Shown here: positions 2,862 to 54,729 of the stretch, piece by piece
Layout of the letters: each line of letters begins with the position of its first letter
How positions within the stretch are numbered: the stretch's first letter is position 1
Source of the DNA: a virus
Lineage: Duplodnaviria > Heunggongvirae > Uroviricota > Caudoviricetes
DNA length: 58,193 nucleotides
Virus record (IMG/VR): IMGVR_UViG_3300045988_132327
Location: 1 to 58,193 of that record
Direction: 5' to 3' (one strand)
The notes under the pieces: model-generated
The model's database searches: none
The model's input: only the letters and a program-made list of their open reading frames with translations
Told to the model about the DNA's origin: nothing
Made by a program: the position numbers and the translations under genes

Positions 2862-3583
2862 CAATTGACTATCAGGTACTGCGTGAGGCGGCAGAAAAGG
2901 CAACACCAGACGAATGGGTCGCATTTATTTCGCCGGGTACTGGTACATATGCGGTGCATACACCCGGTGATAAACGATGTGGAGACGTTATCAAATGGCC
3001 CGGCTTTGATGGACAGGAAAACGCAGAGAATAACGCTCGTTATGTTGCCGCGTTCAACCCAAAGGTTGCACTGGAGCTGCTTGGTGAAATTAAGCGCCTG
3101 GAGGACACAAATATTGATGCTATGTGTCGAATTGCAGAGCTTGAGACTAATCTCGCGGCGCTGGTGGCGGAGAATGCGGGGCTTAAGGCCTTCAAAACCG
3201 CCGTTTATCAGCAGATGGGCGTCGGATGTGATGCTCCTGAATTCTCCATTACGGTAGGTTTGAGTAACTTACGTCGTTTTGCTGACACACTCCACGCCAT
3301 TGAGCGTGAGTTCTTTACCAAAGAGCTACCTGATGAAGAGCACGAAGGCGAAACATTCAATGAATGTCCACTTAGCTGGGGAATGAGCGTCGAACAGTAC
3401 GTTTCCGAGTTTCGCAAATGCCTGGCTGAAGTGCGGGCGCAGGGGGTAGATATGGCTCGTAACGCGATGATTGATTTTGTTGATGGTGAAGTGGGGCCAA
3501 ACAAGAACGTTCCGGGGCTGATTAGAGGCGCAGAGATATGCGTAAGTATTGCTGAACAGCTTCGCAAAGGAGGCGACCAGTGA
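2849..3583 (+). CDS. Ea22-like family protein, paralog 1
   Basis: 244 aa; N-terminal approximately 85 aa near-identical to next ORF (DYQ.LRE.AEKATPDEWVAFIS..GTYAVHTPGD), then coiled-coil-like region. Confidence 0.55.
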   Translation: MARMTIDYQVLREAAEKATPDEWVAFISPGTGTYAVHTPGDKRCGDVIKWPGFDGQENAENNARYVAAFNPKVALELLGEIKRLEDTNIDAMCRIAELETNLAALVAENAGLKAFKTAVYQQMGVGCDAPEFSITVGLSNLRRFADTLHAIEREFFTKELPDEEHEGETFNECPLSWGMSVEQYVSEFRKCLAEVRAQGVDMARNAMIDFVDGEVGPNKNVPGLIRGAEICVSIAEQLRKGGDQ

Positions 3584-35228: not shown

Positions 35229-35650
35229 CAGTGTGCCTCCGCAATTCCGGGATTGGTAATATTGCGATACCAAGGATTAGTGTTTGGTTGTGATGAAGTA
35301 GAGAAACGGCCAGTCAGGACGCCATGTTGATCAGGGATCAGAGAACGGGCTTCTTTTTCAGTTGCGGCAATTGCGAAGTGATCGCAGTGTTTTTGCAGGG
35401 AGTGGAAACGCCAGATAAATTCCGGGCGCGAGCAAGGATTGGCATTAACCATAGTTACGGCCTCATTCGTAGGTTTAACAACCTGCGCCCCGCTGCTAAA
35501 CGGGTGGCAGGACGTGACGGGGTTAGCAGACTGGCACGAATGAAACCAGCAGGCCGAAGCCTCCCCATCACGCCCCACCATAATTCGGGCGTAACGTGGT
35601 TTTACGGACACAAAAATACCGCAATATCGGATATCTGCGGTTGTCCGCAT
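35228..35650 (-). CDS. hypothetical Cys-rich protein
   Basis: 140-aa ORF translationally coupled to Rha-like gene. Confidence 0.4.
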   Translation of the reverse strand: MRTTADIRYCGIFVSVKPRYARIMVGRDGEASACWFHSCQSANPVTSCHPFSSGAQVVKPTNEAVTMVNANPCSRPEFIWRFHSLQKHCDHFAIAATEKEARSLIPDQHGVLTGRFSTSSQPNTNPWYRNITNPGIAEAH

Positions 35651-35798
35651 TCGTATTCAGGCTGCTAAACCCGGTCGCAGAATTTGCTACGACGACATGA
35701 ATATAAGCCTGAAAACATGGAAGATCAACTAAAAATTTCAGCAATGGATGACTTCAGTCGATGATGCAGATCATACATTCCGATTTAGAAACAGCAAA

Positions 35799-47621: not shown

Positions 47622-47726
47622 ACCCCTCCAGAAATAACATCTAATGCGCCACTAACTTAGTCAGTTTGTTATTTCCTTACAGGACATCTTCTAGAATCTC
47701 CCCCCTTAACATACAAGGGGGGACAT

Positions 47727-48287
47727 ATGCTTATTGGATACATTCGCGTATCAACTAATGACCAAAACACCGCTTTACAACGAAACGCCCTTGAAAGCGC
47801 AGGATGTGAGCTAATTTTTGAGGATAAGGCGAGCGGCAAAAAGGCTGAACGCCCAGGATTAAAAAAGGTTCTGCGTATTCTTTCCAGAGGTGACACCCTG
47901 GTCGTATGGAAGTTAGATCGTCTTGGGCGCAGCATGCGTCACTTGGTTGTGCTGGTGGAGGAGCTGCGTGACAGAGGAATTAACTTCCGGAGTCTCACCG
48001 ACTCCATCGACACCAGTACACCAATGGGGAGCTTTTTCTTTCACGTAATGGGGGCGCTGGCAGAAATGGAACGTGAGCTTATCGTTGAACGTACACGCGC
48101 TGGACTTGATGCAGCTCGCGCAGAAGGTCGTATAGGTGGGCGTCGGCCTAAATACCAAGAAGAAACATGGCAGCAAATGCGGCGATTGCTGGAGAATGGC
48201 ATCCCCCGTAAGCAGGTTGCAATCATCTATGATGTGGCTGTTTCCACGCTTTATAAGAAGTTTCCGGCGTCGTCATTTCAATCCTAA
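47727..48287 (+). CDS. cin: Cin/Gin/Hin-family serine DNA invertase
   Basis: 186 aa; catalytic YIRVSTNDQ motif, C-terminal HTH; adjacent cix site. Confidence 0.9.
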   Translation: MLIGYIRVSTNDQNTALQRNALESAGCELIFEDKASGKKAERPGLKKVLRILSRGDTLVVWKLDRLGRSMRHLVVLVEELRDRGINFRSLTDSIDTSTPMGSFFFHVMGALAEMERELIVERTRAGLDAARAEGRIGGRRPKYQEETWQQMRRLLENGIPRKQVAIIYDVAVSTLYKKFPASSFQS

Positions 48288-48304
48288 ACCTTGGTTTAAG
48301 AGAA
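48279..48304. other. cix-like crossover site (left) caatcctaaaccTTggtttaagagaa
   Basis: 26-bp site with dyad halves around central TT; overlaps cin stop; inverted copy at 52736..52761. Confidence 0.6.
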
Positions 48305-48334
48305 CTCGGCACAAGCGGCGAAAAGATCCCCCTG

Positions 48335-50281
48335 TTGAGCACGGCTAACACCTGGAGTGAACGCCAGACTTTCAACGGCGGGATCACCGGGACGCTGACG
48401 GGGAACGCCGATACCGCGACGAAATTAAAAACAGCACGGAAGATTAATAACGTGCTGTTTGACGGTTCTAAAGATATTTCTCTGACGCCTGCGAACCTTG
48501 ATGTCACCAGCCTGACGTTTATGAAAAACAACGGCGAAATGCCGGTTGATGCTGATCTGAATACATTTGGTCCCGTTAAGGCTTATCTGGGGATCTGGTC
48601 TAAAGCTACCTCAACTAACGCAACACTGGAGAAAAATTTCCCGGAAGATAATGCTGTCGGTGTGCTTGAGGTTTTTGCTGCCGGCAATTTTGCAGGCACG
48701 CAACGCTTTATCACGAGAGACGGCAATGTATACATGCGTAAACTCGCCAATCAGTGGAATGGTACTGATGGTCCATGGGGCGTATGGCGTCACACTCAAT
48801 CAGCTACCCGCCCTTTGAGTACGACTATAGACCTGAATACGCTTGGAGCCGCCGAACATCTTGGTTTATGGCGTAACAGTAGCTCGGCTATAGCTTCATA
48901 TGAACGCAATTATCCAGAGGAAGGCGGCTTTGCTCAGGGGATGCTTGAGATCCTCGAAGGCGGAAATTATGGAAGAACGCAACGTTATACCACTCGCCGT
49001 GGAAATATGTATGTCCGCTGTCTTGCGGCAAGCTGGGATGCATCAAATCCGCAGTGGGAACCGTGGTTAAGAGTCGGTCATCAGTCAGATAGTCGTTATT
49101 ACGACGGGGATTTGAATGATGTGACTTCACCAGGTATTTACAGCGTTACAGGTAAAGCGACCAACGGTCCAATACTGGACGGAAACGGCGTGACAGTCAT
49201 CGGTATTCTGGAAGTGTTGAGGCGCTTTGATGGTGTTAACGTATGGCAGCGTTATACAACTGCCGGAACAGGTGCAACCCTTAAAGGTCGCACGTTTGAG
49301 CGCGTCTATACCGGCAGCTCGTGGAGCGAATGGCGGGAAGTCTACACCTCGTATTCACTTCCCCTGAATCTGGGTATCGGCGGTGCAGTGGCAAAGCTCA
49401 CCAGCCTGGACTGGCAGACCCACGACTTTGTGCCGGGCAGTCTGATAACCGTTCGGCTTGATAACATGACCAACATTCCCGACGGTATGGACTGGGGCGT
49501 CATTGATGGCAACCTGATAAACATCGCAGTTGGTCCGAGTGATGATTCCGGTACTGGGCGCTCAATGCATGTATGGCGCAGCACTGTAAGTAAAGCGAAT
49601 TACCGCTTTTTTATGGTGCGTATTTCAGGAAATCCGGGAAGCCGCAAGATCACGACAAGACGTGTGCCAATTATCGACGAAGCTCAGACATGGGCGGCGA
49701 AACAAACCTTCAGCGCCGGTATTTCAGGCGAACTGTCCGGCAATGCGGCTACAGCTACAAAGCTGAAAACGCCAAGGACAATTAACGGCGTAAAATTTGA
49801 CGGCTCGGCAGATATTGAAGTCATCCCGGTTGGCGTTCCTTTACCGTGGCCTTCTGCTACTCCGCCGACAGGCTGGCTGAAATGCAACGGTGCTGCCTTT
49901 GATATGACGAAATACCCTCAACTTGCAAAGGCATACCCAACTGGAAAACTACCTGATTTACGTAGTGAGTTTATTCGTGGCTGGGATGACGGGCGTGGTA
50001 TTGATGCAGGACGTGCTTTATTGAGCATTCAGGCAGGGATGCTGGAGAAGCACCGCCATATTGTTGTTGCTAACGATGGGTATGATTCAAAAGAGGAATG
50101 GGAACTGGCGACAATCTTCAGAAGAGCATATACGCAAGGCCGGGGGCTTGATGCTGCCGATGCCGGAGGGACCCTGATTCCATCACCGACACTTCATTCA
50201 CGAGGGAGTATCGGTAATACTGGCGGGAGTGAAACCCGTCCACGAAATATTGCATTTAACTATATCGTGAGGGCTGCATAA
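48335..50281 (+). CDS. alternative tail-fibre variable part (Sv-prime-like), silent in this orientation
   Basis: 648 aa; N-terminus (STANTWSERQTFNGGITG...) near-identical to internal segment of 51473..54190; frame open back to cix. Confidence 0.7.
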   Translation: MSTANTWSERQTFNGGITGTLTGNADTATKLKTARKINNVLFDGSKDISLTPANLDVTSLTFMKNNGEMPVDADLNTFGPVKAYLGIWSKATSTNATLEKNFPEDNAVGVLEVFAAGNFAGTQRFITRDGNVYMRKLANQWNGTDGPWGVWRHTQSATRPLSTTIDLNTLGAAEHLGLWRNSSSAIASYERNYPEEGGFAQGMLEILEGGNYGRTQRYTTRRGNMYVRCLAASWDASNPQWEPWLRVGHQSDSRYYDGDLNDVTSPGIYSVTGKATNGPILDGNGVTVIGILEVLRRFDGVNVWQRYTTAGTGATLKGRTFERVYTGSSWSEWREVYTSYSLPLNLGIGGAVAKLTSLDWQTHDFVPGSLITVRLDNMTNIPDGMDWGVIDGNLINIAVGPSDDSGTGRSMHVWRSTVSKANYRFFMVRISGNPGSRKITTRRVPIIDEAQTWAAKQTFSAGISGELSGNAATATKLKTPRTINGVKFDGSADIEVIPVGVPLPWPSATPPTGWLKCNGAAFDMTKYPQLAKAYPTGKLPDLRSEFIRGWDDGRGIDAGRALLSIQAGMLEKHRHIVVANDGYDSKEEWELATIFRRAYTQGRGLDAADAGGTLIPSPTLHSRGSIGNTGGSETRPRNIAFNYIVRAA

Positions 50282-50883
50282 TGGATAACGCCGTATTAAA
50301 TAGCGAGCTTATTGCCACGAAGGCGGGGAATATTACCGTATATAACTATGATGGTGAAACTCGGGAATATATTTCCACATCAACTGAATATCTTGCTGTT
50401 GGTGTCGGTATCCCTGCATATTCCTGTTTGGATGTCCCTGGCACACATAAGGCGGGTTATGCTGTCTGCCGCTCAGCAGATTTAAACTCATGGGAATATG
50501 TGCCAGACCATCGCGGTGAAATTGTCTATAACACCGAAACGGGAGATGCCAAAGAAATCACTGCACCGGGCGACTATCCTGAAAATACAACCACTATTGC
50601 CCCGTTAACGCCATACGATAAATGGGATGGTGAGAAATGGGTGACGGATGTTGAGGCACAACACGGTGCCGCAGTAGAAGCGGCAGAAGCACAGCGCCAG
50701 TCGCTGATTGATGCAGCTATGGCTTCCATTAGTCTGATTCAACTGAAATTACAGGCTGGACGGAAGCTGACGCAAACGGAATCCACCCGACTAAACGCCG
50801 TGCTGGATTACATTGACGCGATAACGTCAATGGATACCAGCTCTGCGCCGGATGTCACCTGGCCTGAATTGCAAGAGGCGTAA
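50281..50883 (+). CDS. tail-fibre assembly chaperone (U-prime-like)
   Basis: 200 aa, follows Sv-prime inside invertible segment. Confidence 0.65.
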   Translation: MDNAVLNSELIATKAGNITVYNYDGETREYISTSTEYLAVGVGIPAYSCLDVPGTHKAGYAVCRSADLNSWEYVPDHRGEIVYNTETGDAKEITAPGDYPENTTTIAPLTPYDKWDGEKWVTDVEAQHGAAVEAAEAQRQSLIDAAMASISLIQLKLQAGRKLTQTESTRLNAVLDYIDAITSMDTSSAPDVTWPELQEA

Positions 50884-50941
50884 GCCCAACATATGGAGCA
50901 CTGGAGATATCTACTTCCTCCAGTGCATCTGGATATAATTA

Positions 50942-51469
50942 TTATTCTGGTTTATCAGGCCATTGTGGATTTGCGGCATCCACGCGACTGACCAGAACGC
51001 TGTAACGCTCCCAGGCTTCCAGTCGACTACTCTCCTCATCTGTTGCCATATTCAACCTGACTGCGCGCTCCAGCGGCAAAATCACGGATTCAGCTTCGGA
51101 AAGCAAAGTGACTTTTTGCAACTCTGCCTGTTGTTGTAGTTCATCTTGGGTATAAATCCGTTTGATTACAGCGCCATCTTTGAACATCCAGTTACCCGAA
51201 ATATCAGCCCGTCTATTGGCTGTTATATCAGGCAACTCAACAACGCTTAAACCTTCTGGATTAATTGCCGATACATCCTTATCAATAGCAACAATAACTC
51301 CCTCTGCTGTGTAAGCTAGCTTTATTGTATCTTCCTGAAAGTTTTTCACTTCCTCATACCAGTTTTTTCCGTCTTCAGACCATAACCAGATAACATTAAA
51401 ATTCTTTGTTAGCTGATATTGTTCAACGGTTTTTGGATTACCTGCGACAATGTTTTTTAAATGCTGCAT
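50942..51469 (-). CDS. tail-fibre assembly chaperone (U-like), expressed orientation
   Basis: 175 aa immediately downstream of tail-fibre gene. Confidence 0.65.
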
Positions 51470-51472
51470 AAG

Positions 51473-54190
51473 TTACACCTGCGCCACGTTATACCATGTG
51501 CCATTAATGTATTTTTGTATTGGTCTGAATACTGCCGGATCATCGCCATCAACTTCGCCGACAATGCCAAGCCCTGTAATTACATGACCTGATTTCTCAT
51601 ACATCACGCCTCTTTGCATGGTCTGAACAACACGAGTGCCCAGGCGAATATCTCGTACATAGCGAGAATCCGATTCAGCTTTGGTATATGCACCAACATC
51701 TCCCGCAGAGGGTTTGCGGGTTGTGGTATAAAACTCTGACCAGTCAGCCTCAAATCCATAACCATCTCGCGCTGAACGATAATAAATACCGCCGTTCTTA
51801 TAATTCACACGGAACTGAACCGCCGGGCAACTCCCCGCATTCATATTAAAGTGAAGAATCAATGTTGACGCTCCACTAATAGTCGCATTATAAACGCCGC
51901 TATTTGAGTTCCATCCAACAGCTTTGTCATTTCCAACAGTGCTTCCTGTTTGCCCTAAAGCAAATGCAGGTTGTTGATTTTTCGTGTTGTAGTCTCGTCG
52001 CCAGCCAGGGGCGTAATCTGCGCCATGGTTTATATAAGTAAATTGTGCATTAGTAGTTCCGCCACCGTTGGAAGTGCTCGGGGTGGTTACACGGATGGTC
52101 ATGGCACCTTTATGACCCATAACCTCAATAACGCAACCTGCAAGATGAATAGTTCCACAGCCAGTATCGGTAATAATTTTATTATTGCCGTATGACCATG
52201 AACATTTGCACATCCAGTATGGGTGATTGAATGCCCCTTGAGAATCCAGCCATTCAATCAATTGTGCCGTTGTCCAGTTCCCTGCACCTGTACTAATAGA
52301 ACTGTGAAAAGCGCGACATGCACCAATATTTTTTGTGAAGGTATCTTTTCCTGGAATATCTGCGCCGTTCTGGTTTTTCTGTAATGCTCCTGCGGCTAAT
52401 TCTACGGTTTGCTCAAGATTTAAATCTTCCGCCGTTAGCTCAATATTTTTAGAACCATCAAACGAGACGCCGTTGATAGTACATGCTGTCTGCAACTTGG
52501 TCGCTGTCGCTGCATTACCGGTAGTGTTCTGATTACCTGTTTTATTCACACCTGGCAGGTCGATATTGGCACTACCATCGAATGACACACCGCCTATTGT
52601 GCGTGCTGTTTTCAATTTCGTCGCGGTGTCGGCGTTCCCTGTCAGTGCCCCGGTGATCCCGCCGTTAAAAGTCTGGCGCGCACTCCATGTGTTAGCCGTG
52701 CTCAACAGGGGGATCTTTTCACCGCTGGTACCGAGTTCTCTTAAACCAAGGTATTGGATAACGGCAAGGACACTTGTTTTAGCCAGAATATCGCGACCGA
52801 CTGACGTTAAATCAGTCTGGGCAACAGTATCTTTACCGGTAAAGTACGGCAATTTATTTGCGCCAGTTGCAAGCCCCGCAAGTGCGGTTAAAGTTGCGTC
52901 AAGGGGCTGTTTTCCCGCGAGCGCATTTGTCATTGTTGTCGCAAAATTCGGGTCATTACCGAGCGCCTCAGCCAGTTCATTCAGCGTATCCAGAGCTTCA
53001 GGCGAAGAATCTACTAATGCAGATATAGCCGCTCTTACATAAGCGGTCGTGGCAATCTGCGTATTGTTCGTACCCTGTCCCGCAGTCGGCGCAGTAGGAA
53101 CTCCCGTTAATGCAGGGCTTGCCAAAGGTGCTTTAAGAGCAAGGGCATTGTTGATAGTTGTGCTGAAATTCGGGTCGTTATTGATCGCAGCCGCTATTTC
53201 TTTCAGAGTATCCAGTGTTCCCGGAGCGCCATTGATAAGTGCAGATATAGCCGCTCTTACATAAGCGGTCGTGGCAATCTGCGTATTGTTCGTACCCTGT
53301 CCCGCAGTCGGCGCAGTAGGAACTCCCGTTAATGCAGGGCTTGCCAAAGGTGCTTTAAGAGCAAGGGCATTGTTGATAGTTGTGCTGAAATTCGGGTCGT
53401 TATTGATCGCAGCCGCTATTTCTTTCAGAGTATCCAGTGTTCCCGGAGCGCCATTGATAAGTGCAGATATAGCTGCCTTAACAAAGGCTGCATTTGCGAT
53501 CTGCGTGCTGTTTGTGCCTTGCTCTGCCGTCGGCGCGGTTGGTATACCTTTCAGATGAGGGCTATCGATCGGGGCTTTTGTGTCAACCAAATCATGGAGG
53601 GTTTTGACAGCCAAAGGTGTAGCCGCTTTTCTCTCTTCTGTACTGCTTATTTCATTAGAGAACTCAACACCCACAGCACGATTGACACGGTATTTAAGCA
53701 CTATCATTTCTTTAGTCACAGCCGTTGCCCCGCTGGGGACCACAACTCGACATAATTCAATTTGATTCTGCCCAATAGTGTTGTCCGTGCGCGCGTATAT
53801 TCTGGCGGCACTGACAGAAGATGTGCTATCTACCTGTATCGTTTTTACACCATGTTCAAAATTAGCTTCAAGCACAATAATGTTGGTAGCCCCGGCCTTT
53901 ACCGAAACAATCACATCTTCTATTTGCTGAACGGATATCTGAACATTATTTACATCTACTGAAGCAGCCCCCTTACCTTCTGAGTTTTCAGAAGTGATAC
54001 GGACACTCAATCCTGTGCCGGGAACTGGTTCAAATCCGCAGTAAAAACCAGGCAAAACAATATTTTTTAACTTCCTGTTAAGAGCCGAGCTACTATACAG
54101 GTCGAAATATTGAACATCAGCAAGCAGTGGCTGTGTGACACCTGAAGATAGTGTCATTATGCTTTTCGTTTTATCAGCACCCATGATCAT
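51473..54190 (-). CDS. tail fibre protein S (constant part fused to currently selected variable part)
   Basis: 905 aa; three approximately 74-aa tandem repeats; cix site embedded at 52736..52761. Confidence 0.8.
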   Translation of the reverse strand: MIMGADKTKSIMTLSSGVTQPLLADVQYFDLYSSSALNRKLKNIVLPGFYCGFEPVPGTGLSVRITSENSEGKGAASVDVNNVQISVQQIEDVIVSVKAGATNIIVLEANFEHGVKTIQVDSTSSVSAARIYARTDNTIGQNQIELCRVVVPSGATAVTKEMIVLKYRVNRAVGVEFSNEISSTEERKAATPLAVKTLHDLVDTKAPIDSPHLKGIPTAPTAEQGTNSTQIANAAFVKAAISALINGAPGTLDTLKEIAAAINNDPNFSTTINNALALKAPLASPALTGVPTAPTAGQGTNNTQIATTAYVRAAISALINGAPGTLDTLKEIAAAINNDPNFSTTINNALALKAPLASPALTGVPTAPTAGQGTNNTQIATTAYVRAAISALVDSSPEALDTLNELAEALGNDPNFATTMTNALAGKQPLDATLTALAGLATGANKLPYFTGKDTVAQTDLTSVGRDILAKTSVLAVIQYLGLRELGTSGEKIPLLSTANTWSARQTFNGGITGALTGNADTATKLKTARTIGGVSFDGSANIDLPGVNKTGNQNTTGNAATATKLQTACTINGVSFDGSKNIELTAEDLNLEQTVELAAGALQKNQNGADIPGKDTFTKNIGACRAFHSSISTGAGNWTTAQLIEWLDSQGAFNHPYWMCKCSWSYGNNKIITDTGCGTIHLAGCVIEVMGHKGAMTIRVTTPSTSNGGGTTNAQFTYINHGADYAPGWRRDYNTKNQQPAFALGQTGSTVGNDKAVGWNSNSGVYNATISGASTLILHFNMNAGSCPAVQFRVNYKNGGIYYRSARDGYGFEADWSEFYTTTRKPSAGDVGAYTKAESDSRYVRDIRLGTRVVQTMQRGVMYEKSGHVITGLGIVGEVDGDDPAVFRPIQKYINGTWYNVAQV
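52736..52761. other. cix-like crossover site (right), inverted relative to 48279..48304
   Basis: reverse complement ttatccaataccttggtttaagagaa shares 16 nt with left site. Confidence 0.6.
53018..53461. repeat. perfect 222-bp tandem duplication inside tail-fibre constant region (third, diverged copy follows)
   Basis: copy 1 53018..53239, copy 2 53240..53461, identical by eye; in-frame 74-aa repeat. Confidence 0.8.
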
Positions 54191-54633
54191 CCCTCAACTT
54201 GCTCTATTGTCATGAGAATGCTGTAACGCTTACCTTTGTAGAGAGTATCCTGTTGGGCGCAAAGCACACCAAAAGCCTGATCCTCAGCATCGACAAGCAC
54301 AAGCGTGTTAAAGTCGTAAGGCGTGTTATCTGGCATTCTTTCTTGAGGGAATGCTGCGTTGATAGTGATAATCCCATCCACGCTGGACAATATCAGATCG
54401 GAAACAGCAAACTGTTGAGCATCACTCAATTTAAAATCGAGGGGAATGTCAGCAATATTCCAGCCACCAGCACCATTTGCTGTTACCAGTCCAGATTTGC
54501 ACCAATACGCCTTAGAGATAACGAAACGCGCACCTTTCCCGATCGCTGATTCGGCACGACGTGAATAGTAGTAGGAAAGCAATTGTGCCTTATACAGGCT
54601 ATTGCCATCTCTTGCCTTTAAATTTTCTGCCAT
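54187..54633 (-). CDS. tail-fibre-associated protein (R-like)
   Basis: 148 aa directly upstream of fibre gene with 4-nt overlap. Confidence 0.4.
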   Translation of the reverse strand: MAENLKARDGNSLYKAQLLSYYYSRRAESAIGKGARFVISKAYWCKSGLVTANGAGGWNIADIPLDFKLSDAQQFAVSDLILSSVDGIITINAAFPQERMPDNTPYDFNTLVLVDAEDQAFGVLCAQQDTLYKGKRYSILMTIEQVEG

Positions 54634-54729
54634 ACGAACATAGCCCCTTCATAAGCAATGAACCGAAGGAGAGTATGCTCAGTTTGTGATTTCCGTTGTT
54701 CTTCCCCCTGGCGCAGGGGGAGAGAATGA

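Follow-up and report, generated by a model that had tools for sequence, protein, structure and literature searches.

The question raised by this locus is whether a cin gene and the two opposed tail-fibre gene ends beside it form a working inversion switch and, if so, what the switch exchanges. The locus lies in the IMG/VR record IMGVR_UViG_3300045988_132327 of a Caudoviricetes virus, and the whole stretch of 58,193 nucleotides that was analysed is referred to here as the window. An earlier note, made from the letters of the window, had proposed a Cin-type switch that exchanges the end of a tail fibre together with its chaperone. We conclude with high confidence that the locus, which is carried by a D6-like phage-plasmid, is an inversion switch of the P1 C-segment type with Cin and two cix sites, and that it is functional. 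The element is identified as a D6-like, P1-type phage-plasmid because the 24.6 kb upstream of the region are 96.2% identical to phage D6, at 89% coverage. The machinery is the same as in P1 and the mechanism is not new; the cargo is different, and the content of the cassettes is new.

The C segment of P1, with Cin, the cixL and cixR sites and the sis enhancer, was reportedly worked out by Iida, Hiestand-Nauer and co-workers and is said to be annotated in Lobocka et al. 2004. The records used for comparison were AF234172 for P1 and NC_050154 for D6, in which the invertible segment is annotated by homology to P1. The coordinates of the features in the window are listed in Table 1.

The recombinase encoded next to the segment has the build of the Din family (Hin, Gin, Cin and Pin), whose members are about 185-190 residues long and combine a resolvase domain that carries a serine nucleophile with a C-terminal helix-turn-helix. 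Pfam domains Resolvase (1.8e-50) and HTH_7 (3.2e-18) were identified in the protein, which is 97% identical to Cin of P1 and 98% identical to Cin of D6. It differs from P1 Cin at five residues over its whole length, and the catalytic Ser9 is kept. The nearest solved structure is that of Gin, with a full-length match (E 6e-88). Together with the published cix sites, the domains of the protein and its identity to P1 Cin bear out the assignment of the switch to the Cin type. The 5' part of cin contains a putative counterpart of the 72-bp element that the P1 annotation gives as the enhancer of C-segment inversion by Cin; an ungapped alignment of the two has 68 of 72 identical positions.

The two recombination sites are situated as the earlier note had placed them, one overlapping the end of cin, with the stop codon of the gene inside the 26-bp site, and one as an inverted copy inside the tail-fibre gene; both coordinates and sequences proved correct. 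The published P1 sites, cixL on the opposite strand and cixR, match those of the window at 26 of 26 positions (PMC3241671, Table 3), and the sites in the P1 and D6 records are base-for-base the same. Compared on the same strand, cixR differs from cixL at four positions, all of them in the half outside the segment, and the inner half is common to both. The description of the site as a dyad holds in part: the 26-bp site is present as an imperfect dyad, each of the two sites being self-complementary at 16 of its 26 positions. The central dinucleotides, TT in cixL and AA in cixR, show that the cores match and that the two sites point in opposite directions. Both conform to the Din-family pattern TTC---AAAC- -A -GTTT---GAA, as an inverted pair with the same central dinucleotide. 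In the window, the cixL 26-mer with up to three mismatches occurs once, as compared to an expectation of zero from 100 shuffles, and a scan with the core pattern at two mismatches recovered the two cix sites plus weak matches at chance level at 3194 and 13108 of the 58 kb. A Min-like system of several cassettes with additional cix-like sites was considered and rejected, since only two cix-like sites are present in the window.

Table 1. Features of the inversion locus and of the adjoining tail-fibre operon, in window coordinates.
Feature	Position	Strand	Description
cin, serine DNA invertase	47727..48287	+	186 aa; TAA stop at 48285..48287
Recombinational enhancer (sis), putative	47745..47816		in 5' part of cin; assigned by homology only
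cixL, 26-bp recombination site	48279..48304		CAATCCTAAACCTTGGTTTAAGAGAA; core TT 48291..48292; cin stop in outer half
Inverted repeat, left arm	48281..48438		158 nt, 91%; encodes first ~50 residues common to both variable parts
Sv', silent alternative variable part	48290..50281	+	663 codons from crossover; no own start codon at junction
U', assembly chaperone of Sv' tail fibre	50281..50883	+	200 aa; Caudo_TAP 5.8e-31
Terminator-like hairpin, weak significance	50919..50933	+	in 58-bp spacer between convergent U' and U
U, chaperone of currently expressed fibre	50942..51469	-	175 aa; Caudo_TAP 6.5e-34
Sv, currently expressed variable part of S	51473..52750	-	425 codons; gp37_C-type tip
Gene S, whole	51473..54190	-	905 aa
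Inverted repeat, right arm	52602..52759		158 nt, 91%
cixR, 26-bp recombination site inside gene S	52736..52761		TTCTCTTAAACCAAGGTATTGGATAA; core AA 52748..52749
Sc, constant N-terminal part of tail fibre S	52751..54190	-	480 aa; outside segment
Tandem repeats of 222 nt (74 aa) within Sc	52917..53582		two copies in 53018..53480 99% alike
R, first gene of fixed R-S-U tail-fibre operon	54187..54633	-	96.6% to D6 R, 44% to P1 R

The cix sites head the arms of a pair of inverted repeats of 158 nt, which is the only long inverted repeat of the region. The arms differ from each other at 14 single-nucleotide polymorphism (SNP) positions, 12 of which lie to the inside of the core and two to the outside. 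The crossover points are 4457 bp apart, in agreement with the segment of roughly 4.46 kb that had been proposed. The core lies in a Leu codon, CTT, and it is from this codon on that the expressed and the silent reading frames are alike, so that the protein similarity begins exactly at the site, as the earlier note had it: the expressed fibre reads ...IQY followed by LGLRELGTSGEKIPLLSTANTWSARQTF at the junction, and the silent frame reads ...ILN followed by LGLRELGTSGEKIPLLSTANTWSERQTF. From the core Leu codon onwards, the silent frame begins LGLRELGTSGEKIPLLSTANTW, and the frame that precedes it has a stop and no start.

We compared the window to related contigs for the orientation of the segment. 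The exact Cin protein of the window was found in 133 blocks of a large public assembly collection, and orientations were counted in the 10 contigs with long flanks among the matches listed from these blocks. The contigs derive from independent sources, namely isolate assemblies at NCBI and metagenomes at ENA. Three of the 10 contigs (L003, L009 and L011) have the orientation of the window, here called A, and seven (L004-L008, L010 and L012) have the inverted one, here called B. In the inverted contigs the reverse-strand alignment covers exactly 48281..52759, with 96.4-99.8% identity (at least 99.7% in five of the seven). After normalisation for orientation, the 4457-bp segments showed no differences among L003 and L011 (A) and L005, L008 and L010 (B). 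Contigs that are nearest neighbours differ in orientation: the left and right flanks of L011 (A) and L007 (B) are identical, as are the flanks of L009 (A) and L006 (B), and a single flank position separates L004 (B) from the window and L003 (A). The three nearest-neighbour pairs of opposite orientation thus correspond to at least three independent flips. Over 16.6 kb, L006 and L009 show 3103 differences as they stand and 90 once L006 is inverted in silico at the cix cores. Detection of one orientation only had been named as the finding that would speak against the switch; both orientations are present among contigs with identical Cin. The comparison is evidence of active Cin-type switching among P1/D6-like plasmids in the wild. 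For annotation, the ends of the segment, its point of crossover and the state in which the switch now stands are exactly defined in a D6-like phage-plasmid.

The inversion product is also encoded in nature. The crossover in S falls within the Leu codon CTT of ...IQY-LGLREL..., and inversion of 48292..52748 in silico leaves cin unchanged and converts the 905-aa S into an uninterrupted 1143-aa S', followed by U'. The predicted S' fusion is encoded by L008 and L010, with 1140 of 1141 residues identical. The silent open reading frame is thus no pseudogene but a real second end for the fibre. The segment consists of four genes in two convergent pairs, Sv'-U' on the plus strand (silent) and U-Sv on the minus strand (expressed). 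The layout is that of the P1 C segment, with R and Sc fixed outside, two opposed ends with their chaperones inside, and fusions that are in frame. The proposal that inversion would fuse the constant fibre part to the alternative variable part is thereby supported, and so is the swap of the chaperone, as each of the opposed variable ends has a Caudo_TAP chaperone of its own.

In the proposed mechanism, Cin dimers would bind cixL, which overlaps the cin stop, and cixR inside S. As in P1, Hin and Gin, the enhancer within the 5' part of cin, bound by Fis, would then help the sites to synapse. The central 2 bp (TT/AA) of each site would be cut by the Ser9 nucleophile, half of the tetramer would rotate by 180 degrees, and religation would invert the 4457 bp. 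The promoter, R and Sc would stay in place, and either Sv and U or Sv' and U' would be brought downstream of them in frame. The promoter of the R-S-U operon should lie upstream of R, outside the segment, and transcription from there would read into the variable end and the chaperone that happen to face it. In the present orientation this would yield a 905-aa fibre with a gp37_C-type tip and a 175-aa chaperone, whereas in the other orientation the fibre would be 1143 aa long, its body P2 H-like and its tip a Collar domain, and the chaperone would have 200 aa. A lysogen population would then release particles of two receptor specificities, and a change of host range would be expected from the unrelated tip domains (gp37_C versus Collar). 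Dependence on Fis, the enhancer and negative supercoiling, restriction to inverted sites in cis, catalysis by the Cin allele of the window and drive from a late promoter are likewise what the known systems would lead one to expect, and the established model of the system is left unaltered.

Several points weigh against this interpretation. The evidence for both orientations is a comparison of separate assemblies, not of reads within one culture. Fis sites in the enhancer were ambiguous in a scan for G-N13-C 15-mers, where the only end matches are 49 bp apart and one of them is not conserved in P1, and the assignment of the enhancer therefore relies on homology to the P1 annotation. A late promoter of the P1 LPs type (AAGTTACTT-N4-TACAAT) had no match near 54634..54729, and the count of such matches over the window was at chance. 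Two contigs of opposite orientation, L006 and L009, have the same variant of the Sv arm, with the alleles of the Sv' arm at its first three SNPs (48310, 48313 and 48319). This patch travels with the segment; it shows a short non-reciprocal gene conversion, so homologous exchange also acts on the repeat. Also, the Cin of the window has a serine at residue 102, as described below, so that catalysis by this particular allele is probable rather than proven. Related invertases act in trans, and a host invertase could therefore have done the flipping.

The gene-conversion patch, together with two arms of 158 nt that are 91% identical, raises the possibility that the inversions were produced by RecA-dependent homologous recombination between the inverted repeats and not by site-specific exchange. 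The position of the crossovers argues otherwise. At the cin-side junction, all seven inverted contigs change from left-arm to right-arm alleles between 48287 and 48310, and at the Sc-side junction six of the seven show the reciprocal exchange, with L006 departing only by the patch at 48310..48319. The arm SNPs all move along with the segment. This places the crossover in a 22-bp interval, 48288..48309, which holds the cix core and is identical in both arms; no crossover was found deeper within the 158-nt repeat in the seven contigs. The interval, whose share of the repeat is about 15%, is exceeded in length by a 32-bp identical stretch further in. If homologous crossovers were uniform along the repeat, the probability of this clustering in three independent events would be about 0.003, as calculated here. 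The clustering at the cix core favours site-specific exchange over RecA-type recombination, which we regard as a very improbable source of the flips. Even less credence, close to none, is given to the view that the two orientations are artefacts of assembly across the inverted repeat. It is true that the assemblies are mostly short-read and that scaffold gaps of 100 N occur nearby in three contigs, in the 222-nt repeats. These gaps are located in Sc, however, away from the cix junctions, and both junctions are contiguous in 10 of 10 contigs. The SNPs of the arms are partitioned reciprocally, unlike in a mis-join, and the same picture was obtained from the independent sources mentioned above.

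The remaining alternative accepts site-specific inversion and assigns it to another enzyme. Codon 102 of cin (48030..48032) is AGC, for serine, within the MG(R)FFFH motif. The residue is otherwise invariably arginine, both in Cin of P1 and D6 and in Gin, and likewise in all 13 further enterobacterial invertases compared, which are 49-83% identical and encoded beside Collar-type fibre genes in other Enterobacterales. A 40-mer with the Arg codon was found in 211 PLSDB plasmids, and the corresponding 40-mer with the Ser codon in none. Gin, Cin, Pin and Hin complement one another in trans. The sequence of the switch could accordingly be intact with a Cin Ser102 that is inactive or nearly so, flipped in trans by a Din-family invertase of the host, such as a Pin-type enzyme of cryptic prophages. 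We consider this improbable, since the recurrence of the identical Cin in 133 blocks indicates that Ser102 is neither a sequencing error nor a dead end, and the three or more independent flips all took place in backgrounds that carry Ser102. Moreover, Ser9 and the rest of the 186-aa reading frame are intact. Residue 102, in a motif at the start of helix E, aligns with residue 105 of the gamma-delta/Tn3 resolvase. There the position is regulatory and not catalytic, and Q105L belongs to the set of six changes that make up the activated "NM" resolvase (PMC2794168). In the papers on Hin that were consulted, nothing was found about Arg103 of Hin or Arg102 of Gin or Cin.

Inversion by the Cin of the window itself thus remains the preferred explanation. 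Cin Ser102 is probably active, because the allele is widespread and is carried by every contig that shows flips. A further suggestion, which we put forward as a speculation that is rather unlikely to hold, is that Cin in this lineage is a natural regulatory variant in which Ser102 might alter the rate of switching or make inversion less dependent on Fis and the enhancer. If true, a regulatory variant of Cin would sit in a wild phage-plasmid lineage.

The cargo of the segment sets this switch apart from those of P1 and D6. The silent part, Sv', begins with a junction motif (residues 1-65), continues with a P2 H-like body (69-516), inside which the junction motif recurs (448-511), and ends in a Collar tip. 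Residues 69-516 are 93% identical to the H protein of P2 at the amino acid level. The tip contains a Collar domain (5e-14) and is at most 67.5% identical to any phage record; in species-representative genomes its nearest homologs are in two contigs of Escherichia sp. MOD1-EC7003 (82-85%), and all others are at about 50%. The 13 invertase homologs compared above were taken from the loci of this search. The chaperone U' shares 85-89% identity with Tfa proteins from P2-like and lambdoid phages; no counterpart was found when it was matched against the P1 and D6 segments. In P1, Sv/U and Sv'/U' are homologous to S/U and S'/U' of Mu; in the window, Sv' residues 69-663 also lack a counterpart in P1 and D6, as does U'.

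The expressed part, Sv, is 81% identical to Sv' of P1 over residues 65-425, and is thus a homolog of P1 Sv', not of P1 Sv. It is 93.5% identical to the fibre of the Mu-like Yersinia phage vB_YpM_6. Its chaperone U is 82% identical to P1 U and 57% identical to P1 U'. The pairing in 50942..52750 is therefore mixed with respect to P1, with a fibre end that is P1 Sv'-like and a chaperone that is P1 U-like, and for this reason the naming of S and S' is arbitrary in the window. The last 65 residues of the expressed fibre match both P1 Sv (78%) and P1 Sv'.

As judged from these similarities, the cassette pair brings together a P2 H-like body, a Collar tip and a P1-Sv'/Mu-like tip in a mosaic that is new. 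No record that covers at least 80% of the 6.7-kb region was found in the collections of phages, PLSDB plasmids or complete E. coli genomes, and the lineage with this cassette pair turned up only in the exact-protein look-up of Cin. Modular replacement of fibre ends is a known phenomenon. Here the cargo has been swapped module by module, with P2-like, Mu-like and lambdoid pieces, while the recombinase, the sites and the enhancer are almost unchanged, and such replacement bears on the prediction or engineering of host range in P1-type transducing phages.

The junction motif is a conserved sequence of about 60 residues (..TW..QTF.GGI.G.L.GNA.TATKL...R.I.G..FDGS..). In Sv', two copies of it flank the P2 H-like body, an arrangement like that expected after insertion of a whole module through recombination at the motif, and the expressed Sv likewise holds two copies. 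In the pattern scan, no cix-like site was found in front of the internal copies. Generic consensus scans of the region for sigma-70 promoters and terminators gave matches that were not above the shuffled expectation.

We also compared the locus to other known inversion systems. P1 shares with the window the order lydA - cin - cixL - Sv' - U' - U - Sv - cixR - Sc - R - 16, the location of the cin stop inside cixL, the position of the enhancer and the presence of 222-nt repeats in Sc. The two differ in the length of the segment, which is 4256 bp in P1 and 4457 bp in the window, and in the silent cassette, which in the window is not P1-like and instead has the P2 H-like body, the Collar tip and a Tfa-type chaperone of 200 aa. 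They also differ in Sc, with an identity of only 57%, and in residue 102 of Cin, which is Ser in the window and Arg in P1. D6 resembles the window in the backbone, the cix sites and the region upstream of cin, but has P1-like Sv'/U' and Sv/U, without the Collar-tip cassette and the U' of the window; Sv of the window is 74% identical to Sv' of D6. The upstream region in question (47622..47726), which would hold the promoter and the ribosome-binding site of cin, is the same as in D6 and unrelated to the P1cin/P2cin promoter region of P1, and the expression signals of cin therefore differ from those of P1 in the lineage of the window.

In the G segment of Mu, with Gin and gix, an invertase is also encoded beside a segment of two opposed fibre ends with their chaperones. 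The Mu segment is about 3 kb long, and the backbone of the window is of the P1/D6 type. The gix sites have a GA core and different half-sites (PMC3241671). Hin/hix of Salmonella belongs to the same family and has 26-bp sites whose core is AA; its enhancer, too, lies within the gene of the invertase (PMC3241671; PMC3798978). Hin inverts a promoter together with its own gene, however, whereas the invertase gene of the window is outside the segment and a coding 3' end is exchanged. Min of p15B is likewise a Din-family invertase that acts on the ends of tail-fibre genes in a P1-related plasmid, but the Min system, with six mix sites, and the shufflons use more than two sites and several cassettes, as compared to two sites in the 58 kb of the window.

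Outside the segment, the constant part Sc is 87.5% identical to Sc of D6, in addition to the lower similarity to P1 given above. Its tandem repeats correspond in place to the "repeated elements b1/b2" of P1, which are of about 222 nt. The number of copies varies: some relatives are one copy short, with an S of 829 as compared to 903-905 aa and an S' of 1067 as compared to 1141 aa, and the 100-N gaps of the three assemblies fall exactly within these repeats. The 222-nt repeats are a copy-number polymorphism in the length of the fibre shaft. The Pfam family Phage_P1_tail_fiber_R was identified on the R gene of the relatives. On the Sc side, R is followed by homologs of gene 16 and bplA, and on the other side of the segment there are homologs of lydA, lydB, hdf and darA; the gene order around the segment agrees with the annotations of P1 and D6.

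Elsewhere in the window, a cluster of phage tRNA genes was identified at 20147..22380 on the minus strand, encoding tRNA-Met(cat), tRNA-Ser(tga), tRNA-Thr(tgt) and tRNA-Arg(tct), of which tRNA-Ser (21685..21771) was called by ARAGORN and not by Rfam at the gathering threshold. A C4 antisense RNA and a1/b1 target elements were recovered with Rfam at 35500..35585 and 35654..35706 on the minus strand, corresponding to an immI immunity region of the P1 type.

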